The notes beneath the pieces are model-generated. The model had not been told where the DNA came from. It made no database searches and worked only from the letters and a program-made list of their open reading frames with translations. From the NCBI RefSeq assembly GCF_000014265.1, contig NC_008312.1:2790001-2822000 (forward strand): a stretch of DNA of 32,000 nucleotides, in the 5' to 3' direction. This DNA is from Trichodesmium erythraeum IMS101 (GTDB lineage: Bacteria > Cyanobacteriota > Cyanobacteriia > Cyanobacteriales > Microcoleaceae). Shown in pieces: positions 5,341-27,491 of the stretch. A program made the position numbers and the translations under genes. Each line of letters begins with the position of its first letter. Position 1 is the stretch's first letter.

Positions 5341-5467
5341 AGAGAAAAAAGAAGGAAGAAAATGAATTTTTTACGGGGATTTAGGGATAATTAGGAAAAA
5401 GTAAAAATTGTATCCAATAAATAAAAAATATTGGATACTGGTGCTATATTTCAGATAGAAATTCTAT

Positions 5468-5567
5468 AGGACTAGCTTAAATATATGGGAGTAAGCTTAA
5501 CTAATTATCAGCTTTTTAGGACTAGCTTAAATATATGGGAGTAAGCTTAACTAATTATCAGCTTTTT
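5468..5567. repeat. Perfect 50-bp tandem duplication (2 copies)
   Basis: aggactagcttaaatatatgggagtaagcttaactaattatcagcttttt occurs at 5468-5517 and again, identical, at 5518-5567. Each unit has short inverted repeats (agctta/taagct, aagct/agctt) and ends in a T-run. Confidence 0.9.
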
Positions 5568-9458: not shown

Positions 9459-10933
9459 TTTTGAATAGGTAGGGATTTTCCATGGAACGGAACTAAATCT
9501 TAGGGTTCAAAGACATAAGATATCTTTGCTCTTAGTCTATAATTCTTAAAAATATTAAGTAGTTAAACAAAATTAATTACATAATTTTTTCGTAATGCAA
9601 TGAGACAAAAGTTTTCCAGTTGACATAAGCATCTATTCCTAGCTATTCATTTTGAGTAAAACGCCACCAAATTTATCTCAAATTCAACGGTGAAGAATAG
9701 GTAGGCAATTCAAAGATAGTAATTTGCAAAATTGAGCACTCTTCAAGTTAATCAAAAATCCCATCACTGTTATGAATAGATAATTGCTCTCAAACAATTT
9801 CTGTGGGTTGGTTTATATTAGGAAAAAGTTACCTATATAAAAAATAATTACATCAGAATTAATTTTTGCAGTTGAAACATAACTTTCTCTGATTATTTGG
9901 GGAAGAGATTCATCATTCTATTAACATTCAGATCGGTTTATATCTATATGGGGAATTTAAGTATTTCCGGGATACTGCCAGACACTGAGAATCCTAGTAA
10001 TCATACTAAACCATACTTCATCTAAGTAATATAAATTAATTTTTTCCCCAAAAAACTATAATTTTAAATTCTTCTGTTTTATTAGCTTGTTTTATTTATC
10101 TTCTTCACCCATGAGGTTGTATTTCTAAAGCTTTACCCTGATGATTCACTCATCATTCTGAAACTTTTAATAATTCTTGCTAGAGTTTTTTTAAGGTCAC
10201 AATTCTCCAGATTGATACAGTAGTACATCATTAGTTGTTTGTGTAAGTAATTTTGTTTAGTTACTTACTAAACTTTAGTTAGAGATTAGTTAATAAATAT
10301 ATAGCTATTCTATTTTTACATTGTCAAAAATCTAGCAGCTTTTTGGGAATCATGAAGATATAATAGTTTCGGAGTTTATTTCTAGTGTTTTTTATTTTGA
10401 CAACCTGGGGAATTAGATTACTATAATATCTTGATAATATATCAGTTTCAGTAGTGGCTTACTTCAAGAAAAGTACTAAAAAATGACAAAATTAATATTG
10501 GCTCTCTTGGAATTTTTCCTGGATTTTCCCTGACCTGAGTGGAACAAATATAGAAAAATTAATGTGCTGCAACTATTGTTTATTGGTTCTTCGCCGATCC
10601 CGGATCTTAACTAATACCAAACCCGGGTCTAATAGCAGGGTTGTTCCATGACCTAATCCCTGACAGTATTTACCTCTGATGTGTGATGTATATTTAACAG
10701 CTCTGAAGAAACCTGCTCCACATAGAGTTTTACTATTCATCTCTTCTACTTATAATGTTGATCCCATAATGTATTTACCAACGGCTGTAACTTAAAAAAA
10801 ATACTCTCTTACTCTTGGCAGGTTTTGTATCATTTGAGAATTCTATATCAGTTTCGGGAACATAGTAAATTATAAATTTAGGGACGTTCTACAGGAGAAA
10901 TGAAAAAAATATTTGTATAATTTATGAATTATA

Positions 10934-11641
10934 TTAGCAATCAATATAATATTTAGGAATAACTAAAGTTAATAACCAATATAATTTGTACTTAAAAGTG
11001 TTTTTATCTACATTTTTTTCTACAGCTGTAGGTTGTTTCATTACTTGTAATAACGAATTTAAAGCATAATTTTCAGATGAGTTTACTTGCTGATCAAAAA
11101 GAGCAATATTGATTGCTAAAGGCAGAGCAATAGCAGCTACATCTGGCTCTAATTCTTCAACTAATAAATCAATAGACTGAGGAACTCTAACTGCAGAACG
11201 AATTCCTTGCAATATATTTTCATTTAATCCTAACTGCTGTAAACTAGGATATATTTCGTCCCATTTAACTTTCTGATTGGGTTCTCCTGCTTGAATAACG
11301 TAAGCTATCAACCTTTCCAGTTTTCCTTGTTGCTTGGTTGTCATATTTTGGATAGGTTCAGTTTTAGTTAACTCTTGAGAATCATTTTGATTTTTTTCTT
11401 GTTTTATACCACTGACAATTTTTTCCCAATCTTGACCATCACAAGATTCGGGTTTTTCCACAGTTAAAGAAATAGTTATTTTTTTGTCTTGACTAGCATC
11501 TAGCTCAGTTACCTCTGCTCTGACTCCCAAAAAACCTAGCCATTTCGCAATTGTATGAATTAATGTTAGACGGGTTGAGTGACAGTTTGCTAATAACCGA
11601 ACCTGGGTCCGAACCATAGGACGAACTATTTGTGTCAGCAT
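10934..11641 (-). CDS. Hypothetical protein (function unknown)
   Basis: 235-aa ORF uninterrupted in AT-rich DNA, with a plausible two-part layout. The N-terminal part is MLTQIVRPMVRTQVRLLANCHSTRLTLIHTIAKWLGFLGVRAEV. A low-complexity linker follows, then a helical C-terminal part, LERLIAYVIQAGEP...IALPLAINIALFD. I do not recognise a family with confidence. Confidence 0.55.
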   Translation of the reverse strand: MLTQIVRPMVRTQVRLLANCHSTRLTLIHTIAKWLGFLGVRAEVTELDASQDKKITISLTVEKPESCDGQDWEKIVSGIKQEKNQNDSQELTKTEPIQNMTTKQQGKLERLIAYVIQAGEPNQKVKWDEIYPSLQQLGLNENILQGIRSAVRVPQSIDLLVEELEPDVAAIALPLAINIALFDQQVNSSENYALNSLLQVMKQPTAVEKNVDKNTFKYKLYWLLTLVIPKYYIDC

Positions 11642-11679: not shown

Positions 11680-12490
11680 TTTATAGTATAGTCAAGGCTT
11701 TGGTGATAAATAGCAATTTTAGCTACAGATTTTTTTGACTATTGCCTTCAAATTTAGAAATGATGTACTCTATCTCAATTAAATCCATTGGTCTGAAGTT
11801 TAATCCACAAAATGCGCATTTACCTTTTTGTGGTTTCAACAGTGTTGTGACTTCTTTCCTTATGCTCGGGTTTTTGCCAATTCTGCTACTTCAGTCAACC
11901 TAGTTACTATCATGGAGTGATTTATTACTTTTAACTTTGACATACCTGATAATAAGTACCTCTAAGTGTTGACTTAATATTATGTTTGTCTTGGTTAAAT
12001 ATCCAGTTTTGGGTTTATTTCACATTGGGAAAATGCTTTTTCCAGACCGGGGTGTCTGTTTTGTTTGAGTGTTTCCTACTTACCCATAAAGCTAGTCTTT
12101 GACCTAAGAGGTTATCCAGTTTACTAAACACTTTTTTGTCAAATTGCATATATTGACAAGAATTGTGCACCTTGGTTATCAATTTATATTTGAATGGTAT
12201 CTTAAAGAGGTTTTCTGGTTCCCTTATGCTTTTTTTACGACTTTGAAAATGGTTGAATCAGGGTTTTAAACCCTTGTTTGCTTGACTTAACCTAACCTTG
12301 CCTGACTGTAAAATCTAAAAAATTAAATCCATATTCTGATGAGTCAAATTCAGGATGATTCTCTTTATATTCTTCAGTGGGTATGGCCTATTCTGTTTTT
12401 TCCGATTTAAGTTCTAATTCTATGCAGCTTAACCATTACCGTCTCAAGGCTTTTGTTACATTACTACTTTGATATCCTTGTGTAATATTT
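11680..12490 (-). pseudogene. Group II intron-encoded protein remnant (RT C-terminal part, maturase, HNH), degraded
   Basis: Reverse-strand fragments in several frames. WLSCIELELKSEKTE*AIPTEEYKENHPEFDSSEYGFNFLDFTVRQG corresponds to the RT segment L.L..EKT.I.H...GFDFLGF. LLGQRLALWVSRKHSNKTDTPVWKKHFPNVK* corresponds to the maturase L.RW..RRHPNKS..W...KY. TLLKPQKGKCAFCGLNFRPMDLIEIEYIISKFEGNSQKNL corresponds to the HNH Q.GKC..CG......D..EVDHIIP...GG....NLQ. Multiple stops and frameshifts. I could not find intron domain V/VI. Confidence 0.6.
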
Positions 12491-12721
12491 GGGGTATTTA
12501 TAGTTCAGATATTTTAATTCATAATTTAACTTTAGTTAATATATAGTCAAATATCATAATTGATTCATATTTTTTTTTAAGTATCAATTTATTTGTATCA
12601 AACTATACTTTAAATATAAAAAAAAACTTTTTCTACAAAAAGTACACAAAAAACACTTGTAATCTAAAAACGGTGATAAAAATTTAATTAGAGAACTTAA
12701 TACTCACAAAAGTAAAAAACT

Positions 12722-14143
12722 ATGGGACAGCAAAAATTTGGTGTTATCGGTCTAGCTGTAATGGGTGAAAACCTAGCTCTCAATGTAGAACGCAACGGAT
12801 TCCCCATTTCTGTATATAACCGCAGTGACGATAAAACTAAGAAATTTATGGCAGAACGGGCACAAGGAAAAAACGTCCACGCTGCTTATAGTTTAGAAGA
12901 TTTTGTTCAATCCCTAGAAAGACCCCGCAGAATCCTAGTAATGGTAAAAGCAGGAAATCCAGTCGATAAGGTTGTTGAACAACTTAAACCTCTGTTAGAT
13001 AAAGGTGACATGATCATTGACGGTGGTAACTCTCTCTATGAAGATACAGAACGCCGTACTAAGGATTTAGAATCCACTGGATTAGGTTTCATGGGAATGG
13101 GAGTTAGTGGTGGAGAAGAAGGTGCCTTATGGGGTCCTAGTTTAATGCCGGGTGGTACAGAGGCTTCTTACAAAGAATTAGAAGCTATTTTAACTAAAAT
13201 AGCTGCTCAAGTTGATGATGGTCCTTGTGTCGACTACGTTGGTCCTGGAGGTGCTGGTCACTATGTGAAAATGGTACACAACGGCATTGAGTATGGCGAT
13301 ATGCAGTTAATTGCTGAAGCTTATGACTTGCTGAAAAATGCTGTAGGAGTTAGCAACGAACAACTCCATGAAATTTTTGCTGAGTGGAATAAAACTCCAG
13401 AGTTGGAATCTTTCTTAATTGAAATTACAGCTGATATCTTTACTAAGAAAGATACTGAGACTAGCAATCATTTAGTTGACATGATTGTTGATTCTGCTGG
13501 ACAGAAGGGTACAGGCAGATGGACGGTGATTAATGCTTTAGAATTGGGTGTTGCTGTTCCTACTATTACGGCGGCTGTTAATGCTCGTATCATGTCTGGT
13601 ATTAAGGAGGAGCGTGTTGGTGCTGCTAAGGAATTAACTGGTCCGAGTGGTCAGTATGAAGGTGATAAGCAAGCTATGATTAATAAGGTGCGGGATGCCT
13701 TGTATTGTTCTAAGATTTGTTCTTATGCTCAAGGTATGGCTTTGTTGGCTCAGGCGTCTCGACAGTTTGATTATAAGCTGAATTTGGGTGAGTGTGCGCG
13801 AATTTGGAAAGGTGGTTGTATTATTCGGGCTGGGTTTTTGAATAAGATTAAGAAGGCTTTTGATGAAAATCCTGCTCTACCTAATTTATTGTTAGCTCCA
13901 GAGTTTAAGCAGACTATTCTTGATCGCCAGAATGCTTGGCGGGAAGTTGTTGCTTTAGCTGGTAAGTTAGGACTGCCTGTTCCTGCTTTTAGTGCTTCTC
14001 TAGATTATTTTGATAGTTATCGTCGGGTAACTTTGCCTCAAAACTTGACTCAGGCTCAACGGGATTATTTCGGCGCTCACACTTATGAGCGTATTGATAA
14101 GTCTCGTGGTCAGTTCTTCCATACTGAGTGGCCTACTAAGTAA
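12722..14143 (+). CDS. gnd: 6-phosphogluconate dehydrogenase, decarboxylating
   Basis: 473 aa. Contains FGVIGLAVMGENLALN (Rossmann), IIDGGNSLYEDT, GMGVSGGEEGA, HYVKMVHNGIEYGDMQLIAEAY and AQRDYFGAHTYERID. Confidence 0.95.
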   Translation: MGQQKFGVIGLAVMGENLALNVERNGFPISVYNRSDDKTKKFMAERAQGKNVHAAYSLEDFVQSLERPRRILVMVKAGNPVDKVVEQLKPLLDKGDMIIDGGNSLYEDTERRTKDLESTGLGFMGMGVSGGEEGALWGPSLMPGGTEASYKELEAILTKIAAQVDDGPCVDYVGPGGAGHYVKMVHNGIEYGDMQLIAEAYDLLKNAVGVSNEQLHEIFAEWNKTPELESFLIEITADIFTKKDTETSNHLVDMIVDSAGQKGTGRWTVINALELGVAVPTITAAVNARIMSGIKEERVGAAKELTGPSGQYEGDKQAMINKVRDALYCSKICSYAQGMALLAQASRQFDYKLNLGECARIWKGGCIIRAGFLNKIKKAFDENPALPNLLLAPEFKQTILDRQNAWREVVALAGKLGLPVPAFSASLDYFDSYRRVTLPQNLTQAQRDYFGAHTYERIDKSRGQFFHTEWPTK

Positions 14144-14986: not shown

Positions 14987-17900
14987 GTGGATCCTATATC
15001 TGAAGAATTAAACAACTTTAGACAAGGTTTTACTTTTACAGGTACAGGCGAAGTGTTAGCCGAGGTAGATAAATTCGGTGATGAGCTGCGATTTTCTAGT
15101 GGTCTTGAATTAAGTCCAGCTAGCGAGGAACTAAAAATTGAAAATATAGATACATCTAATGCTGATGAAAATTTCTTGTTGCCCAAGAGTAATTTGGGAA
15201 ATTTAGATTTAAATATAGAGGACTCAGAAGATAGGACTTTAAAGACTGAAACAGACCCACTGATAGGACAAGACAATGATCCCGTTCAAGAAGTCGACTC
15301 TTTAATTAGTGGGACATCTGATCGGGTAAACAATATACAAACTAGGGCTGCTAAAAAGCGGGATAAAGCAGGTAATAGTCGAGGAAAAGCCCACAACTTA
15401 GGAGTTTTAGAGGATGATCAAAAGTTACAGGAGTTTGTCGGTAAGTCTGACCGGAAGGACTTTTATAAGTTTAAGGTTAAGAACAAGACGGATATAGATA
15501 TTGAGTTGGGCGGCCTCAGTGGAAATGCGGATTTGTATTTGCTGAATAATAGGGGGAAAGTTATTGAGAAGTCTAATAAGGGTGGTAAAAGGGCAGAGGA
15601 TATTGAGCGGACTTTGAACCCAGGGACTTATTATGTGAGGGTGCAGTCAAAAGGTAGAGCAAATGCTAATTACAACTTGAGTTTGGATAGTGAGTTGTCA
15701 GATCTGGCGGGTAATAGTTTGAAGAGAGCTCACAACTTGGGAGTGTTGAAGGATGATCAAAAGTTCCAGGAGTTTGTCGGTAAGTCTGACCGAAAGGATA
15801 TTTATAAATTTAAGGTTAAAGACAAGACGGATGTAGATATTGAGTTAGGCGGCCTCAGTGGAAATGCGGATTTGTATTTGCTGAATAATAGGGGGAAAGT
15901 TATTGAGAAGTCTACTAAGGGTGGCAAAAGGGTAGAGGACGTTGACCGGACTTTAAACCCAGGGACTTATTATGTAAGGGTTCAGTCGAGGAATAAGAGG
16001 GTTAATGCTGATTATAGTTTGAGTTTAGATACAAAGAGCCCACATTTGCATATTCACGAACCTATAATTATAAACGCCATCGACACTGCTGCAGATCAAC
16101 CCGGTACATTAGATGACTCTTCAACAATTGATTTGATGGTTGTTTACACTTCAGAAGCTCGCCGAGCGGAGGGGGGTATAGATGCTATCAAAGATCTAAT
16201 TGAGTTTGCTGTTGATGACGCCAATGAAGCCTTTGCTAAAAGCGGAGTTCAATCCCAGTTACGGCTAGTCCATACAGCAGAGGTTAACTATACCGAGTCG
16301 GGTAAAAGTATTAAGGAACTTGAACGGCTAAAAAACGATTCAGACGGCTATATGGATGAAGTTCACGAACTTCGTAATGATTATGGTGCTGACATTGTAA
16401 GTTTATTTGTCAGCAGTCTTGACGATGCTGGTGGTATAGCTTATCCAATGGGCACGCCAGCGTATCAATTTGAAAGTCACGCTTTCAACGTTGTCACCAA
16501 TTATAATGCCAAAACTCGTCACACTCTTGCTCATGAAATAGGACATAATCTAGGATTAGCCCATGATCGCGATAATGCTGAAGGTCAAGGTTCTTTTCCT
16601 TACGGCTATGGTTACACTACTCCCAGTGGCGCGGGAACCATAATGTCTTATGCTAGGAACAGACTTCCATACTTCTCTAACCCTGCTATTAGCTACAATG
16701 GTGAAGCACTTGGTCAAACCAACCGTGAGAACTCTGCTTTAGCTATTAACAAAGTGGCTCAATATGCTGCTAACTGGCGACCTTCTGGTGGTACAATTAA
16801 ATCCCAAGACTCTATCACTCTCAACTCCCCCAACGGAGGTAATACCTTAGAACAGGGTTCTAATTATACTATTACTTGGAATGACAATATTAGCGAAAAC
16901 ATCAAACTGGAACTATACAAAGGAGGTTCTTTCTACAGTACCATTAACAGTTCTACTACCAGCGATGGCAGTTACAGTTGGAGCATACCCACATCCATAA
17001 CCAGTGGCAGCGACTACAAGTTAAAAATTAGTAGTGTTAGTGATAGTAGCTTGTACGACTACAGCGATAGCAACTTCACTATTGAACCAGAAGAGTTCAT
17101 CACGCTCACAGCTCCCAACGGAGGTAACAGTCTAGAACCAGGGAGAAGCTACTACATCGACTGGGAGGATAATATAAGCGAGAATGTGAAACTAGAACTG
17201 TACAAAGGAGGTTCTTTCTACAGTACTATTAATAGCTCTACCTCCAGTGATGGTCGTTACAATATCTGGACAGTACCCACATCCATAACCAGTGGCAGCG
17301 ACTACAAGATTAAAATCAGTAGCGTTAGTGATAGTGGCTTGTACGACTACAGCGATAGCAACTTCACTATTGAACCAGAGGAGTTCATCACGGTCACAGC
17401 TCCCAACGGAGGTAACAGTCTAGAACCAGGAATAAGCTACTACCTTGACTGGGAGGATAATATAGGCGAGAATGTCAAAATAGAACTGTACAAAGGAGGT
17501 TCTTTCTACAGTACCATTGACAGCTCTACCTCCAGTGATGGTCGTCACATCTGGGGAGTACCCACATCCATAACCAGTGGCAGCGACTACAAGATTAAAA
17601 TCACTAGTGTTAGTGATAGTGGCTTGTACGACTACAGCGATAGCAACTTCACTATTGAACCAGAAGAGTTCATCACGCTCACATCTCCCAACGGAGGTAA
17701 CAGTCTAGAACCAGGGAGAAGCTACTACATCGACTGGGAGGATAATATAAGCGAGAATGTGAAACTAGAACTGTACAAAGGAGGTTCTTTCTACAGTACT
17801 ATTAATAGCTCTACCTCCAGTGATGGTCGTTACAATATCTGGACAGTACCCACATCCATAAGCAGTGGCAGCGACTACAAGATTAAAATCAGTAGCGTTA

Positions 17901-20900
17901 GTGATAGTAGCTTGTACGACTACAGCGATAGCAACTTCACTATTGAACCAGAAGAGTTCATCACGCTCACAGCTCCCAACGGAGGTAACAGTCTAGAACC
18001 AGGGAGAAGCTACTACATCGACTGGGAGGATAATATAAGCGAGAATGTGAAACTAGAACTGTACAAAGGAGGTTCTTTCTACAGTACTATTAATAGCTCT
18101 ACCTCCAGTGATGGTCGTTACAATATCTGGACAGTACCCACATCCATAACCAGTGGCAGCGACTACAAGATTAAAATCAGTAGCGTTAGTGATAGTGGCT
18201 TGTACGACTACAGCGATAGCAACTTCACTATTGAACCAGAAGAGTTCATCACGCTCACAGCTCCCAACGGAGGTAACAGTCTAGAACCAGGGAGAAGCTA
18301 CTACATCGACTGGGAGGATAATATAAGCGAGAATGTGAAACTAGAACTGTACAAAGGAGGTTCTTTCTACAGTACTATTAATAGCTCTACCTCCAGTGAT
18401 GGTCGTTACAATATCTGGACAGTACCCACATCCATAACCAGTGGCAGCGACTACAAGATTAAAATCAGTAGCGTTAGTGATAGTGGCTTGTACGACTACA
18501 GCGATAGCAACTTCACTATTGAACCAGAAGAGTTCATCACGCTCACAGCTCCCAACGGAGGTAACAGTCTAGAACCAGGGAGAAGCTACTACATCGACTG
18601 GGAGGATAATATAAGCGAGAATGTGAAACTAGAACTGTACAAAGGAGGTTCTTTCTACAGTACTATTAATAGCTCTACCTCCAGTGATGGTCGTTACAAT
18701 ATCTGGACAGTACCCACATCCATAACCAGTGGCAGCGACTACAAGATTAAAATCAGTAGCGTTAGTGATAGTGGCTTGTACGACTACAGCGATAGCAACT
18801 TCACTATTGAACCAGAAGAGTTCATCACGCTCACATCTCCCAACGGAGGTAACAGTCTAGAACCAGGGAGAAGCTACTACATCGACTGGGAGGATAATAT
18901 AAGCGAGAATGTGAAACTAGAACTGTACAAAGGAGGTTCTTTCTACAGTACTATTAATAGCTCTACCTCCAGTGATGGTCGTTACAATATCTGGACAGTA
19001 CCCACATCCATAACCAGTGGCAGCGACTACAAGATTAAAATCAGTAGCGTTAGTGATAGTGGCTTGTACGACTACAGCGATAGCAACTTCACTATTGAAC
19101 CAGAAGAGTTCATCACGCTCACAGCTCCCAACGGAGGTAACAGTCTAGAACCAGGGAGAAGCTACTACATCGACTGGGAGGATAATATAAGCGAGAATGT
19201 GAAACTAGAACTGTACAAAGGAGGTTCTTTCTACAGTACTATTAATAGCTCTACCTCCAGTGATGGTCGTTACAATATCTGGACAGTACCCACATCCATA
19301 ACCAGTGGCAGCGACTACAAGATTAAAATCAGTAGCGTTAGTGATAGTGGCTTGTACGACTACAGCGATAGCAACTTCACTATTGAACCAGAAGAGTTCA
19401 TCACGCTCACAGCTCCCAACGGAGGTAACAGTCTAGAACCAGGGAGAAGCTACTACATCGACTGGGAGGATAATATAAGCGAGAATGTGAAACTAGAACT
19501 GTACAAAGGAGGTTCTTTCTACAGTACTATTAATAGCTCTACCTCCAGTGATGGTCGTTACAATATCTGGACAGTACCCACATCCATAACCAGTGGCAGC
19601 GACTACAAGATTAAAATCAGTAGCGTTAGTGATAGTGGCTTGTACGACTACAGCGATAGCAACTTCACTATTGAACCAGAAGAGTTCATCACGCTCACAG
19701 CTCCCAACGGAGGTAACAGTCTAGAACCAGGGAGAAGCTACTACATCGACTGGGAGGATAATATAAGCGAGAATGTGAAACTAGAACTGTACAAAGGAGG
19801 TTCTTTCTACAGTACTATTAATAGCTCTACCTCCAGTGATGGTCGTTACAATATCTGGACAGTACCCACATCCATAACCAGTGGCAGCGACTACAAGATT
19901 AAAATCAGTAGCGTTAGTGATAGTGGCTTGTACGACTACAGCGATAGCAACTTCACTATTGAACCAGAGGAGTTCATCACGGTCACAGCTCCCAACGGAG
20001 GTAACAGTCTAGAACCAGGAATAAGCTACTACCTTGACTGGGAGGATAATATAGGCGAGAATGTCAAAATAGAACTGTACAAAGGAGGTTCTTTCTACAG
20101 TACCATTGACAGCTCTACCTCCAGTGATGGTCGTCACATCTGGGGAGTACCCACATCCATAACCAGTGGCAGCGACTACAAGATTAAAATCAGTAGCGTT
20201 AGTGATAGTGGCTTGTACGACTACAGCGATAGCAACTTCACTATTGAACCAGAGGAGTTCATCACGGTCACAGCTCCCAACGGAGGTAACAGTCTAGAAC
20301 CAGGAATAAGCTACTACCTTGACTGGGAGGATAATATAGGCGAGAATGTCAAAATAGAACTGTACAAAGGAGGTTCTTTCTACAGTACCATTGACAGCTC
20401 TACCTCCAGTGATGGTCGTCACATCTGGGGAGTACCCACATCCATAACCAGTGGCAGCGACTACAAGATTAAAATCAGTAGCGTTAGTGATAGTGGCTTG
20501 TACGACTACAGCGATAGCAACTTCACTATTGAACCAGAGGAGTTCATCACGGTCACAGCTCCCAACGGAGGTAACAGTCTAGAACCAGGAATAAGCTACT
20601 ACCTTGACTGGGAGGATAATATAGGCGAGAATGTGAAACTAGAACTGTACAAAGGAGGTTCTTTCTACAGTACCATTAACAGTTCTACCTCCAGTGATGG
20701 TCGTTACACCTGGCTAGTACCCACATCCATAACCAGTGGCAGCGACTACAAGATTAAAATCACTAGTGTTAGTGATAGTGGCTTGTACGACTACAGCGAT
20801 AGCAACTTCACTATTGAAGCAGATGATTCAAACTCTGATAAATACTACTTTACCTACTTTTATGATCTAGGCGACTCCTATGATGGTTTCTTGTACGAAA

Positions 20901-21175
20901 AAGCAGGAAGATATTCTTTAGATGATTCATTATACAGCAGTAATGGTCGCTACCAGATATGGGATATTGAGAGTGGCGTGGGTAGTAAAAATGATATTGG
21001 CGATGTTTACGTTTATAGCTACTACGATGAGAATTATACTGGTGAAACTTACGAACCATCCTGGTGGACTTGGGGACTTACGGCAGGTGAAAATGGCTTA
21101 GGTAGTGAGTCTGACACAATATCGGGTTTCTATGGTGAAGAATATTTTGACCCCTATAATGAAGCTGACGGTTAA
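14987..21175 (+). CDS. Giant modular secreted/surface-type zinc metalloprotease: acidic N-term, 2x PPC domain, reprolysin-like metzincin domain, 14 tandem Ig-like repeats, Tyr/Asp-rich tail
   Basis: 2062-codon ORF uninterrupted in stop-rich AT DNA. The start is GTG at 14987, with AGGGAA 8-13 nt upstream, an in-frame TAA at 14936 and no ATG in between. Zinc site HEIGHNLGLAHD lies at 16532-16567 and the Met-turn GTIMSY at 16643. Both PPC copies carry the hallmarks D.YKFKV...GNADLYLLN...GTYYVRV. See the sub-features below. Confidence 0.85.
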   Translation: MDPISEELNNFRQGFTFTGTGEVLAEVDKFGDELRFSSGLELSPASEELKIENIDTSNADENFLLPKSNLGNLDLNIEDSEDRTLKTETDPLIGQDNDPVQEVDSLISGTSDRVNNIQTRAAKKRDKAGNSRGKAHNLGVLEDDQKLQEFVGKSDRKDFYKFKVKNKTDIDIELGGLSGNADLYLLNNRGKVIEKSNKGGKRAEDIERTLNPGTYYVRVQSKGRANANYNLSLDSELSDLAGNSLKRAHNLGVLKDDQKFQEFVGKSDRKDIYKFKVKDKTDVDIELGGLSGNADLYLLNNRGKVIEKSTKGGKRVEDVDRTLNPGTYYVRVQSRNKRVNADYSLSLDTKSPHLHIHEPIIINAIDTAADQPGTLDDSSTIDLMVVYTSEARRAEGGIDAIKDLIEFAVDDANEAFAKSGVQSQLRLVHTAEVNYTESGKSIKELERLKNDSDGYMDEVHELRNDYGADIVSLFVSSLDDAGGIAYPMGTPAYQFESHAFNVVTNYNAKTRHTLAHEIGHNLGLAHDRDNAEGQGSFPYGYGYTTPSGAGTIMSYARNRLPYFSNPAISYNGEALGQTNRENSALAINKVAQYAANWRPSGGTIKSQDSITLNSPNGGNTLEQGSNYTITWNDNISENIKLELYKGGSFYSTINSSTTSDGSYSWSIPTSITSGSDYKLKISSVSDSSLYDYSDSNFTIEPEEFITLTAPNGGNSLEPGRSYYIDWEDNISENVKLELYKGGSFYSTINSSTSSDGRYNIWTVPTSITSGSDYKIKISSVSDSGLYDYSDSNFTIEPEEFITVTAPNGGNSLEPGISYYLDWEDNIGENVKIELYKGGSFYSTIDSSTSSDGRHIWGVPTSITSGSDYKIKITSVSDSGLYDYSDSNFTIEPEEFITLTSPNGGNSLEPGRSYYIDWEDNISENVKLELYKGGSFYSTINSSTSSDGRYNIWTVPTSISSGSDYKIKISSVSDSSLYDYSDSNFTIEPEEFITLTAPNGGNSLEPGRSYYIDWEDNISENVKLELYKGGSFYSTINSSTSSDGRYNIWTVPTSITSGSDYKIKISSVSDSGLYDYSDSNFTIEPEEFITLTAPNGGNSLEPGRSYYIDWEDNISENVKLELYKGGSFYSTINSSTSSDGRYNIWTVPTSITSGSDYKIKISSVSDSGLYDYSDSNFTIEPEEFITLTAPNGGNSLEPGRSYYIDWEDNISENVKLELYKGGSFYSTINSSTSSDGRYNIWTVPTSITSGSDYKIKISSVSDSGLYDYSDSNFTIEPEEFITLTSPNGGNSLEPGRSYYIDWEDNISENVKLELYKGGSFYSTINSSTSSDGRYNIWTVPTSITSGSDYKIKISSVSDSGLYDYSDSNFTIEPEEFITLTAPNGGNSLEPGRSYYIDWEDNISENVKLELYKGGSFYSTINSSTSSDGRYNIWTVPTSITSGSDYKIKISSVSDSGLYDYSDSNFTIEPEEFITLTAPNGGNSLEPGRSYYIDWEDNISENVKLELYKGGSFYSTINSSTSSDGRYNIWTVPTSITSGSDYKIKISSVSDSGLYDYSDSNFTIEPEEFITLTAPNGGNSLEPGRSYYIDWEDNISENVKLELYKGGSFYSTINSSTSSDGRYNIWTVPTSITSGSDYKIKISSVSDSGLYDYSDSNFTIEPEEFITVTAPNGGNSLEPGISYYLDWEDNIGENVKIELYKGGSFYSTIDSSTSSDGRHIWGVPTSITSGSDYKIKISSVSDSGLYDYSDSNFTIEPEEFITVTAPNGGNSLEPGISYYLDWEDNIGENVKIELYKGGSFYSTIDSSTSSDGRHIWGVPTSITSGSDYKIKISSVSDSGLYDYSDSNFTIEPEEFITVTAPNGGNSLEPGISYYLDWEDNIGENVKLELYKGGSFYSTINSSTSSDGRYTWLVPTSITSGSDYKIKITSVSDSGLYDYSDSNFTIEADDSNSDKYYFTYFYDLGDSYDGFLYEKAGRYSLDDSLYSSNGRYQIWDIESGVGSKNDIGDVYVYSYYDENYTGETYEPSWWTWGLTAGENGLGSESDTISGFYGEEYFDPYNEADG
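15371..16040 (+). repeat. Tandem duplication (339 nt / 113 aa) encoding two PPC (bacterial pre-peptidase C-terminal-type) domains
   Basis: Copy 1 starts at 15371: GNSRGKAHNLGVLEDDQKLQEFVGKSDRKDFYKFKVKNKTDIDIELGGLSGNADLYLLNNRGKVIEKSNKGGKRAEDIERTLNPGTYYVRVQS. Copy 2 starts at 15710: GNSLKRAHNLGVLKDDQKFQEFVGKSDRKDIYKFKVKDKTDVDIELGGLSGNADLYLLNNRGKVIEKSTKGGKRVEDVDRTLNPGTYYVRVQS. Confidence 0.8.
16125..16785 (+). other. Metzincin catalytic domain (reprolysin/M12B-like) of the giant ORF
   Basis: IDLMVVYTSEARR...HTLAHEIGHNLGLAHDRDNAEG...GAGTIMSYARN. This gives HExxHxxGxxHD plus a downstream Met-turn, the metzincin signature. The subfamily assignment is from motif memory only. Confidence 0.75.
16814..20818 (+). 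repeat. 14 in-frame tandem repeats of 285/288 nt (95/96 aa), Ig-like Kre9/KNH (Ser-Thr-rich GPI-anchored family)-type domains
   Basis: Unit boundaries, taken at the gaaccaga(a/g)gagttc motif, fall at 17084, 17372, 17657, 17945, 18233, 18521, 18809, 19097, 19385, 19673, 19961, 20246, 20531 and 20816. The type A unit (96 aa) is ITLTAPNGGNSLEPGRSYYIDWEDNISENVKLELYKGGSFYSTINSSTSSDGRYNIWTVPTSITSGSDYKIKISSVSDSGLYDYSDSNFTIEPEEF. The type B unit (95 aa) carries V, I, L, G, I, D substitutions and RHIWGV. Confidence 0.9.
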
Positions 21176-21498: not shown

Positions 21499-22203
21499 TT
21501 AGCCTAGTCTAGTACTTTGCAAATATATCCGCTTCAGAGTATTAATATCCCTAGATGAAATAGGAGGAGGTTCTGCCACCTGAGAATAATACATAACATC
21601 AGTTTTCTCAGGACTATGACCCCAAATACCCAAAGCATGACCAAACTCATGACGAGCAGCAGCAGGCAGATATTTACCTACTTGCATAGGACTCAACCAA
21701 ATCACAAAATTATGAGATAAAATACCATTCTCATCTTCAGATAACTGATAGCGAGCTTCTGCCGAACGCGCTCTTAAATTTCCTGCTCTCAGAGGAGGTC
21801 GCTTGTTAAAAATTTTAATATCAGCAACTTCTGGGCTATCTACCACTTGCAAAGGTAAATAAATATTCCATTCCCAAATAGCATCTACTACAGTCTTAAC
21901 CCATTGACGAGAGCGAGACTCATCATTATCAGAAGATTCGACATAAACCTTGATCGGAAATTGCGACCAAATTAGATAACCTACATCCTGAACTTCAATT
22001 TGATCAAAATAATCACCACTACCACTAGGGTCTTGCCATTGTGCCAAAGTTTCTGGTAGAGGATAAACTTTCAGAGAAGGTAAATTTTGAGGAGTAACTG
22101 CTGTAGTCGGAATTGAAAACAAAAAATAGAAAGCTACCATCCAAATAGCAAAACCGAAAAAAAAGAACCGTAAATAAACCGATGCTATCTTGTTAGTAAA
22201 CAT
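21499..22203 (-). CDS. Small membrane-anchored zinc metalloprotease, matrixin-like metzincin
   Basis: 234 aa. N-terminal hydrophobic anchor: VYLRFFFFGFAIWMVAFYFLFSIP. Catalytic motif: AARHEFGHALGIWGHSPEKTDVMYY (HExxHxxG...H plus a Met-containing turn). Confidence 0.75.
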   Translation of the reverse strand: MFTNKIASVYLRFFFFGFAIWMVAFYFLFSIPTTAVTPQNLPSLKVYPLPETLAQWQDPSGSGDYFDQIEVQDVGYLIWSQFPIKVYVESSDNDESRSRQWVKTVVDAIWEWNIYLPLQVVDSPEVADIKIFNKRPPLRAGNLRARSAEARYQLSEDENGILSHNFVIWLSPMQVGKYLPAAARHEFGHALGIWGHSPEKTDVMYYSQVAEPPPISSRDINTLKRIYLQSTRLG

Positions 22204-24841: not shown

Positions 24842-24905
24842 TATATATATTTGTTAACAATTAATTAAGAATGCTACCATAATTGGAAAGATATACTATT
24901 ATATT

Positions 24906-24924
24906 ATGTCAACTAGGTTGACAT
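24906..24924. promoter_or_regulatory. 19-bp perfect palindrome 65 bp upstream of the glgB start
   Basis: atgtcaac tag gttgacat has 8-bp perfect arms and a 3-nt centre. The related gttgac(g/a)tcc motif recurs at about 25195 and 25255, inside the tnpB-remnant 3' region. Confidence 0.35.
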
Positions 24925-25189
24925 CCTCCCCAACTGCACTCCTATGAAATAAGCTATTTCTTAATCCATTTTTTTTAGTAGTTTGGACGCATAAATTTTT
25001 TGACTATGTACGGACGCTCTTATGCAAAGTCCCTACCGTAGCAAAAGTTTTAATCCTATTACTTATAATACCTACTAAATTATCAGTTACAGATAAGCTT
25101 TCTTGATTGATTTCTACTACAAGACTCTGAAAATAGCTATTAGTAAATACCTATTCGCAAAATTTTTGGTTACTTTTGCTGATGATGGA

Positions 25190-26408
25190 ATGAATGTTGA
25201 CGTCCTTTCCGGCTTGAAGGCGCGGAGATTTCTACTAAGCTTTAGATCCTTAGCTGGTTGACGTTTTATCGGCTATTGATCTACCCCTATTGCTCCCCTC
25301 GGACCAGGGAGATGCTGGTGGCTTAAGCTTCCCTCCACGTCCATTTTTTATCTGGTGACTGCCCGCCCGCGAATAATAATATATTTATTACTGCGTTTTG
25401 CAAAAAGGTCCTGTTTAGCTCCACAGTTGAGACATTCCTATTCTCTCACTGAAAGGTCTATTTTGCCTGCGGCTGAAACCATAGTATGAGGATATTTTGG
25501 ATGCTGGATCCCTGAGACTAATTACTCTGAAATCACGATCATATTTGTCGCTTTTCCTTTTAGAAGTGTTCTAAATTTTCTCCAACCTTAAATATAATAT
25601 TGCTCTGGATCATTTGCAGTTTTTTACCATATTAGAAACATTTAAATCTGCTAAAACTATTACTTGGTTTTTGTCTTTTATTTTAGGAGATAATTTATGC
25701 AGAAAATCTATCTTAGTATCTTTCAATTTTCTATGAAATTTATCAACTCTAACCTGTACTTTTTCATATTGTTTAGATGTTTGAGTTTTCCTGCGATAAT
25801 GACTTACTTAATTTACCCCTTTTGAAGCTCCTCTAAAAAAGACTATTTTTTATCAGTTTTTTAACGGTTTAGGACCATATTTTTTTTGAATATAGTCGCC
25901 CTAGAAGGGTGAAGCTTTAGAGCAAATTTTTTAGTAATTATCTTAAAAAAAATAATTTTAATTTTTCCAATTTTTACTAAATAAACTTTAGTTAACCAAC
26001 TTTAAAAACACTTTTTTTAAATCTTGTAAATTGTTTTAGCTTTCTACTTTTCAACTTAGGGGTTTTTATGAATTTGCATTTTATTTACCCCTTTTATTGA
26101 TTTTAAAAAGTTTTTATATACCTGGTTTCAATCATTTAAATACTGCTGCAATGAGATACAAGAAATCTCTAACAACTATCCTCTATCTTCAGTTTTTTTT
26201 GCTTGAGTAATTAGCTATTTTGACAAATTGTGATAGACATTATTTTTTCTATCCTAGTTTTTATTTTTCCTGGTAGAAGCCTAAGCTATTATTCCAGATT
26301 AAGTGAAAACACTCAAACAATTGTATGAGTTTTGTCGTTTTATATTTATGTTTTTTGTGTGCACTTCATATTTATACCTAGCCTTCATATTTTACTTGGT
26401 TTTAGCAT
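25190..26408 (-). pseudogene. tnpB: Degraded tnpB (IS200/IS605-family, IS1341-like RNA-guided nuclease gene), no tnpA
   Basis: Reverse-strand fragments, listed from the N-terminal end. MLKPSKI*RL at 26408 matches MLKAYKYRL. LLKQKKTEDRG*LLEISCISLQQYL matches L..LKK....WLKEVSS.ALQQ. SHYRRKTQTSKQYEKVQVRVDKFHRKLKDTKIDFLHKLSPKIKDKNQVIVLADLNVSNMVKNCK* is the RuvC-II region (IVLEDLNV.GM.KN). HPKYPHTMVSAAGKIDLSVRE*ECLNCG is the Zn-ribbon region (PSS..CS.CG...LSVREW.C..CG). AVINIL matches NAAINI. The C-terminal NLRAFKPERTS matches EA.AF..G. Many stops and frameshifts. Confidence 0.8.
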
Positions 26409-27491
26409 GGATAGTAGAACTATAGCATAATAAGTTTGATATGCAACATAATTAAAAAAGGAGACATTCTGTTTCACACTTAAATATAAATTTGTTCTGG
26501 ATAACTAAATACAGAAAAAAGTACTAAGAAAGAAAGGACTAGAGTTGATCAAAGATTTCTGGGAAACTGTAGTTAGTAAAAATAATTTAAAATAATATTA
26601 GAGTTTAATGTGGAGGTTGATTATATTCATTTAGCTATAGGATACTCGCCAAAATTGCCAGTATCTCTCAGATAATAAACCGCTAGTAAACCACCATCTG
26701 AAGAGTTAATAGTAGATTTTATGGAGCAGGAAGATACAAAAAACTCAAAAAAACTAATTTGCTCAATGGATCCCATCTTATTTTGCGCTTCCATTGGAGG
26801 CGCACCTCTGAAAATTATTAAAGATTACATTTGGCATTAATTGTCCCCCACTGAAGGACTATCCCTGATCAGAAACTTCTGAAAATTTTGTTGGAAAAAG
26901 GGAGAAAGAGTATAATTAACAAGGGGAACTAGTTAAGTCTTTAAAAAAACAATGTGCTTAACATAACTTGTCTATTTTTTCAAGTATTATGTTCAGAAAA
27001 ATCTTGATAAAGCATAGCTAAAAGGGGGAAGTTTGATACCCATTTTTTTTATTTACCTTTTTATAATTATAATCTTAAGTATTTCTGAAACGATTGATAG
27101 CTATGAAACTAAATTTTTTGTTTCAGATAAATAACATAAATATACAAATTATGAAAATAATTTTTAAATGATTTTTTGACTGTTTAACTGCTTAGATAGA
27201 GATAAATAGAATTAAATCAAAAGAAAGTCTGTTTAATGAAAAATATTACTTTGTAAGGTGAGACAAATATTTTAACTGAAATAGGATAGCTATATTAGTA
27301 TTCTTATTGATATAATTTTGGCTGCAAAATTTTTTATCTATGAAATAGAAGCAAAAATATTAATCAAATAGTTTAGAAGTGGATAAATATAAAAATTAAA
27401 AATTTAATTATAATGGCAGGTTACAACACATATTTAGTAGTAAATACTATTGTATTTTAAATTATATAGATTTCAGTATAGGTACACTATA

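Follow-up and report, generated by a model that had tools for sequence, protein, structure and literature searches.

The closest described counterparts of the protein discussed here are the Periscope Proteins (Whelan et al. 2021, PMC8201768), exemplified by Sgo_0707 (SHIRT), Rib/alpha C, SasG, Esp, and CdrA. These proteins carry an N-terminal head on a stalk of tandem folded domains that makes up most of the protein. The high DNA identity of the repeats is thought to drive intragenic recombination, and the number of repeats differs among homologs; the methods of that paper define the repeats as longer than 50 residues and at least 80% identical. Repeats of this length and identity, an N-terminal head, and a repeat number that differs among homologs recur, together with a predicted stalk of folded domains, in Trichodesmium erythraeum IMS101, a marine cyanobacterium, in a gene that lies in the 32,000-nucleotide (nt) stretch of DNA analyzed here (assembly GCF_000014265.1, contig NC_008312.1, positions 2,790,001 to 2,822,000 of the forward strand; below, "the window," in whose numbering coordinates are given). 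The gene contains an array of 14 tandem units of 95 to 96 amino acids, and the array fills 1,334 of the 2,062 residues of the predicted protein (65%). It is likely that the array codes for 14 immunoglobulin-like (Ig-like) Kre9_KNH domains placed between a PPC-PPC-M12 head and a C-terminal domain, that its inner unit, type A, was amplified recently, and that the array acts as a variable stalk or spacer. Judged from its sequence, this is a recently expanded and recombination-homogenized array of Ig-like domains in a large protease gene, a well-known type of repeat.

The whole array lies in a single open reading frame (ORF) on the plus strand (14987 to 21175), which begins with GTG and is preceded by AGGGAAG 6 to 7 nt upstream; the same start is conserved in the two orthologs described below. 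The encoded protein is composed of an acidic N terminus, two PPC domains, an M12 metzincin domain, 14 Kre9_KNH Ig-like domains, and a C-terminal domain of 118 amino acids. The N terminus (MDPISEELNNFRQG...) covers about 130 residues (14987 to 15380) and is also found in the orthologs. The tandem PPC domains (15368 to 16031; copies at 15368 to 15689 and 15707 to 16031) are 87% identical in DNA by a blastn self-match, and two stretches matched PF04151 with an E value of 1.9e-21 and 77 to 91 bits against a gathering cutoff of 25.9. The next domain (16118 to 16711) matched three reprolysin profiles, Reprolysin_5/4/3, namely, PF13688 (95.4 bits; cutoff, 27), PF13583 (76.9 bits), and PF13582. It contains the zinc motif HEIGHNLGLAHD (HExxHxxGxxHD; 16532 to 16567, amino acids 516 to 527), followed by GTIMSY, which in translation reads like a Met-turn. 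The head is thus, by these profile and motif matches, an M12/reprolysin-like metzincin and a predicted protease. Kre9_KNH (PF10342) matched 14 stretches with an E value of 1.7e-117 and 384.9 bits, and one unit alone scored 41 bits against a cutoff of 24.6. Each unit corresponds to one Ig-like domain and a short linker, EPEEF. Two adjacent units, modeled with AlphaFold2 on an alignment of 16 sequences, gave two beta-sandwiches joined by a 5-residue linker (predicted local distance difference test [pLDDT], 93.4; predicted template modeling score [pTM], 0.69, with two of the five models scoring lower). The best matches of this model in the PDB were tandem Fn3/Ig modules (CbhA 3pdd, titin Z1Z2, and fibronectin); at the sequence level, the protease and two units together had no match in the PDB.

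Tandem Repeats Finder recovered a sole tandem array at 16886 to 20830 (period 288, 13.8 copies, 97% matches, score 7139). For comparison of the units, the 14 pieces were cut at the starts given in an initial annotation of the window, which had read the repeats by eye, and were self-aligned with MAFFT. Seven units (starting at 17084, 17945, 18233, 18521, 19097, 19385, and 19673) do not differ at any of 288 nt. The unit at 18809 departs from this type A sequence by a single change at 18836 (column 28, G to T, GCT to TCT, Ala to Ser), and that at 17657 departs from it by three bases, among them the same G-to-T change in column 28. Type B units are 285 nt long and are separated from type A by 15 substitutions and one codon deletion; those at 19961 and 20246 are identical copies, and the one at 17372 differs from them at 2 sites, both of which it has in common with the last unit. 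The order of the units is div-A-B-A'-A-A-A-A'-A-A-A-B-B-last. It comprises the diverged unit 1 (16814 to 17083), which has about 80% nt identity to type A; unit 2, type A (17084 to 17371); unit 3, type B (17372 to 17656); units 4 to 11, all A-type and including six of the identical copies (17657 to 19960); units 12 and 13, type B (19961 to 20530); and unit 14 (20531 to 20815). Only one variant site interrupts the block from 17945 to 19960 (2,016 nt), and the runs from 17910 to 18835 (926 nt) and from 18837 to 19968 (1,132 nt) are exactly periodic. The homogenized 14-unit array, the single change in the unit at 18809, the B units, and the unit order are therefore as the initial annotation had described them. 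That annotation had also taken the last unit for a 288-nt hybrid of A and B; it is indeed distinct, but it carries the same 3-nt deletion as type B and is 285 nt long in register (a length of 288 would include the next GAA codon), and it is a mosaic with four private substitutions and two sites common only to it and the B unit at 17372.

The length of every unit is a multiple of 3, and only one of the six reading frames is open across the array; the other five contain no ORF of 50 amino acids or more. The amino acid identity between adjacent units is 86 to 100% in units 2 to 14 and 76% between units 1 and 2. With units in frame along a single open frame and with the identities measured, chance is not a credible explanation. 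The nine A-type copies have a mean divergence of 0.29%, and seven of them are identical, which indicates that these copies are young. The A and B types have a synonymous divergence (dS) of about 0.11 and a nonsynonymous divergence (dN) of about 0.04.

The order of the units had been taken as a hint that a block of four units was duplicated once, from 17657 to 18808 into 18809 to 19960. These blocks are identical except at 2 sites, and each opens with a unit bearing T at column 28, as such an event would leave them. However, column 28 is the sole site that sets a block duplication apart from events involving single units, and the remainder of the similarity is explained equally well by the identity at period 288. 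The same TCT codon also occurs in the third unit of a contig from another assembly (L082), so this T may be an old, inherited variant of the unit rather than a marker of duplication. We regard a single four-unit duplication as somewhat unlikely.

A comparison with other genomes, in which the N-terminal 609 residues served as the query for orthologs, bears on how the array arose. The ortholog in a cyanobacterial metagenome-assembled genome (MAG) from a tar biofilm (L001; 72% identity) has 959 amino acids, in which a pair of PPC domains and the protease are followed by two units and a tail of a different kind. That of Okeania sp. KiyG1 (L003; 79% identity) has 969 amino acids; here a single PPC domain and the protease are followed by five units, of which three are mutually 84 to 94% identical. 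Counts across the species are thus 2, 5, and 14. When all units were placed in a neighbor-joining tree, the first units clustered irrespective of genome, making unit 1 of IMS101 the positional ortholog of the others, and the inner units of Trichodesmium and Okeania formed separate groups. This shows that the edge unit is old and positionally conserved and that the inner units were amplified or homogenized within each lineage. Conserved edges with lineage-specific inner units are the classical pattern of arrays that evolve by unequal exchange. Units resembling type A, type B, and the terminal unit are present at 96 to 99% identity in further T. erythraeum-like contigs (L081 and L082), and this sharing, together with the A-B dS, indicates that the unit types are old, much older than the copies in IMS101.

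Exchange between units is also apparent in a close relative represented by two sister SPAdes assemblies (L081 and L084; flanks 99.2 to 99.8% identical). Its first unit equals that of IMS101 for 158 nt (100%) and then continues as terminal-type sequence, and in the region of the switch IMS101 keeps the "DGSYSW" version common to Okeania and the MAG. By this alignment, the 3' half of the first unit in the relative has been replaced by inner- or terminal-type sequence. A similar process may have acted on the PPC pair, whose two copies resemble each other more closely (87% here and, at 10376 to 11030, 94% in the MAG) than they resemble those of other genomes (78 to 85%). Okeania has one copy. Like the main array, the pair reflects either concerted evolution or duplications that took place independently. 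Other members of the family likewise have near-identical units, with up to 97 to 99% amino acid identity (P0002, P0003, and P0006). Because of the unit tree and the first-unit replacement in the close strain, recent unequal recombination or gene conversion is well supported, and with it the recent expansion or ongoing gene conversion that the initial annotation had proposed; the young A copies and the old unit types point the same way.

We propose that, in the lineage of IMS101, RecA-type unequal crossing-over and gene conversion between the 288-nt repeats recently amplified the inner A unit and would keep it uniform. Sister or polyploid chromosome copies could act as exchange partners, and many copies per cell would favor exchange; about 100 genome copies per Trichodesmium cell are assumed in PMC9640675, which cites Sargent et al. 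2016. Each gain or loss would keep the reading frame and change the protein by whole domains. Between the protease and the C-terminal domain, the array would then probably serve as a spacer or stalk of variable length or offer a varying number of identical binding modules.

It is also conceivable that the array reflects selection for multivalent binding, with each Kre9_KNH domain binding the same ligand, e.g., a polysaccharide of the sheath, of the colony mucilage, or of prey, and with a stable copy number. Kre9_KNH arrays appear to be a reusable module, as they follow M12, S8, and C1 heads in paralogous proteases of Trichodesmium and Okeania; dN/dS between unit types is below 1 (0.3 to 0.6); and the fold matches include glycan-acting proteins with Fn3/Ig-like modules in tandem (3pdd and 6e9b). 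However, selection at the protein level leaves the identity at synonymous sites unexplained, the number of units varies widely among the orthologs, and in the literature searched no ligand is reported for a bacterial Kre9_KNH domain and the family is named only in two papers, both on fungi. We therefore consider this explanation distinctly unlikely and continue to favor recent amplification of the A unit.

Several observations weigh against parts of the favored reading. An extracellular stalk would be expected to belong to an exported protein, and inspection of the N terminus by eye, no predictor having been run, revealed no hydrophobic stretch resembling a signal peptide; Pfam and National Center for Biotechnology Information (NCBI) family scans returned no anchor or sorting-domain family at cutoff; and no secretion genes are found among the neighbors. 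The peptide "ISEELNNFRQG" was considered as a double-glycine leader and was dropped, as it lacks GG and the motif is not conserved in either ortholog. The protease is putatively extracellular, and export may occur. As to the origin of the array, one resolved array does not separate recent amplification from ongoing conversion. The initial annotation had looked to dN/dS and to a phylogeny of the units across genomes for that distinction; the inner units do cluster by lineage, but expansion and conversion are not separated by these comparisons. As to the number of units, the count of 14 is that of the deposited assembly alone, and the exactly periodic runs are long for Sanger reads. The assembly of an indistinguishable strain (L083; GCA_018457135.1), whose flanks are 100.000% identical over 12,117 and 9,900 nt, has 100 N in place of 17104 to 20763, that is, a gap over the array. 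A database fragment (P0080) has 10 units in another order, div-A-A-A-A-A'-A-B-B-last.

These last points raise the possibility of an assembly artifact in degree, in which the array is real but the number or order of its identical A units is off by one or more. Besides the gap between identical flanks and the long periodic runs, a contig of another assembly stops just after unit 1 (L085), one ends at or before the array (L002), and the sister assemblies L084 and L081 have one and three units, respectively. In all of the short-read assemblies of Trichodesmium examined, the array is broken, replaced by a gap, or shortened, which bears out the warning in the initial annotation that this is a place of assembly hazard. 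The overlap between the database fragments P0085 and P0080 is inconsistent, although units 1 to 6 of P0085 are in the deposited order. In addition, landmark units divide the array into short anchored blocks (a B unit at position 3, the three-base variant at position 4, and the one-base variant at position 8), which speaks against an error of this kind. We judge an artifact in degree to be unlikely. With the count of 14 taken from one assembly, either run of three identical A units may be one unit too long or too short. Collapse, rather than expansion, is the usual error in the assembly of repeats, and 14 is therefore more likely to be a minimum.

The one- and three-unit contigs were rejected as proof of polymorphism. 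In the L081/L084 strain, the first unit has at least 170 nt in common with the last, and an assembler short-cut, and with it collapse, is therefore possible there. Polymorphism in copy number between strains or cells, which the initial annotation had thought probable, is plausible by analogy with variable-length repeat proteins and from the counts in different species.

By the same analogy, the array is likened here to a periscope stalk, and the protein is not assigned to the Periscope Proteins class. Its head is a predicted protease rather than an adhesin, and, in contrast to Periscope Proteins, it has neither an LPXTG motif nor another known anchor, and no signal peptide was seen by eye. It comes from a marine cyanobacterium that is free-living and polyploid, and PMC8201768 mentions neither cyanobacteria nor Kre9. 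The strain-level counts here are limited to one and three units in assemblies prone to collapse. It can be imagined that the protein is a periscope-like protease of variable length, in which unequal recombination among the many chromosome copies makes alleles of differing unit number within filaments and between strains, and that this tunes the reach or avidity of an M12 protease attached to the cell surface or colony matrix via a C-terminal domain of undescribed fold. We consider this very unlikely in its full form.

Comparison with families closer in sequence places the modules more precisely. Every unit scores above the gathering threshold of the Kre9/KNH family (PF10342; named "Ser-Thr-rich GPI-anchored membrane family protein" at NCBI), but the characterized members of that family are fungal cell wall or glycosylphosphatidylinositol (GPI)-anchored proteins, whereas the domain in this bacterial protein is repeated in tandem and lacks any GPI context. 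With Mep72 of Pseudomonas aeruginosa, the protease shares HExxHxxGxxHD, the Met-turn-like GTIMSY, the Reprolysin_5/4/3 matches, and a partial model match that reaches into the first unit. However, it scores 134.3 bits against a cutoff of 645 for the Mep72 equivalog NF052434 and covers positions 1 to 314 of the 573 in the model, and its PPC domains are N terminal to the protease, which is followed by the 14-unit array; it is not Mep72. Paralogous proteases with the same PPC and Kre9_KNH modules (P0005, P0012, P0017, P0019, and P0164) have one to seven units of lower identity, and neither 14 units nor seven copies of identical DNA sequence were seen in any of those sampled, although short-read assemblies may hide arrays. 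The literature searched (Trichodesmium tandem repeats, Kre9, and extracellular metallopeptidases) contained no paper on this gene; the transcriptome study of IMS101 describes a large repeat array, but that locus, near Tery_0080, is noncoding and distinct from this one.

The 118-residue C-terminal domain (20819 to 21172) is aromatic and acidic, and no Pfam or NCBI family model matched it. An AlphaFold2 model built from an alignment of 29 sequences was all-beta (pLDDT, 94.4; pTM, 0.87), and a Foldseek search of the PDB with this model gave nothing better than an E value of about 1 or a template modeling score of 0.27. The domain family is rare, with 30 clusters at an E value of ≤0.001 among 1.84 billion representatives. 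The same domain ends the C1-peptidase paralog P0164 (68% identity) and P0004 (52% identity), and elsewhere it occurs in two to eight tandem copies in other proteins. Joint Genome Institute metagenome contigs contained no match to the domain or to the 32-nt pattern at the unit junctions.

The neighboring genes are of a housekeeping nature and encode an AMP-binding enzyme, a 2-oxoacid dehydrogenase E2, a zinc alcohol dehydrogenase, a 6-phosphogluconate dehydrogenase, GlgB, and PBP2. Scans for promoters and terminators were at background level only. A convergent downstream gene (21499 to 22203, minus strand) encodes 234 amino acids with a weak match to matrixin (M10). In the biofilm MAG, the C-terminal tail of the main protein (12400 to 12880) contains "GLEHEEGNPNSLMSY," which looks M10-like by eye, no profile search having been run, and downstream of the orthologous locus (18632 to 20352) there are three clusters of a 121- to 123-nt tandem repeat with 96 to 100% identity. 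Short noncoding tandem duplications occur in the window at 1660 to 1850, 2585 to 2858, and 5467 to 5567, with periods of 96, 138, and 50, the last being 100% identical. ORFs of at least 100 amino acids leave long gaps, e.g., 24842 to 27449, which fits the reported 60% coding density of the genome.

Two independent assemblies share an alternative continuation directly after the second PPC domain, at window position 16016 (L082, 9724 to 11474; L002, 4149 to 4234). The former is an ENA contig that is 99.6% identical upstream, and the latter belongs to Trichodesmium sp. MAG_R03. The continuation reads as an S8-propeptide-like peptide, EYVPDEILVKLKSEPTV. In the ENA contig, it is followed by a stop codon, three Kre9_KNH units, and an IS1-type transposase. 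A search with the peptide spanning the PPC2/S8-propeptide junction returned only short fragments. From its sequence, the junction appears to be either a rearranged, decayed allele or a crossover to a paralog.

This locus is of interest mainly for the organism that carries it, for the protease head and the C-terminal domain of its product, and for the practical consequences it has for assemblies. For short reads it is a proven assembly trap, and gene catalogs and metaproteomic databases will accordingly hold truncated or chimeric versions of the protease. If it is true, variation in the length of this protein would extend the idea of variable-length repeat proteins from the adhesins of pathogens to an enzyme of a marine nitrogen fixer that is polyploid, forms colonies, and is of ecological importance.

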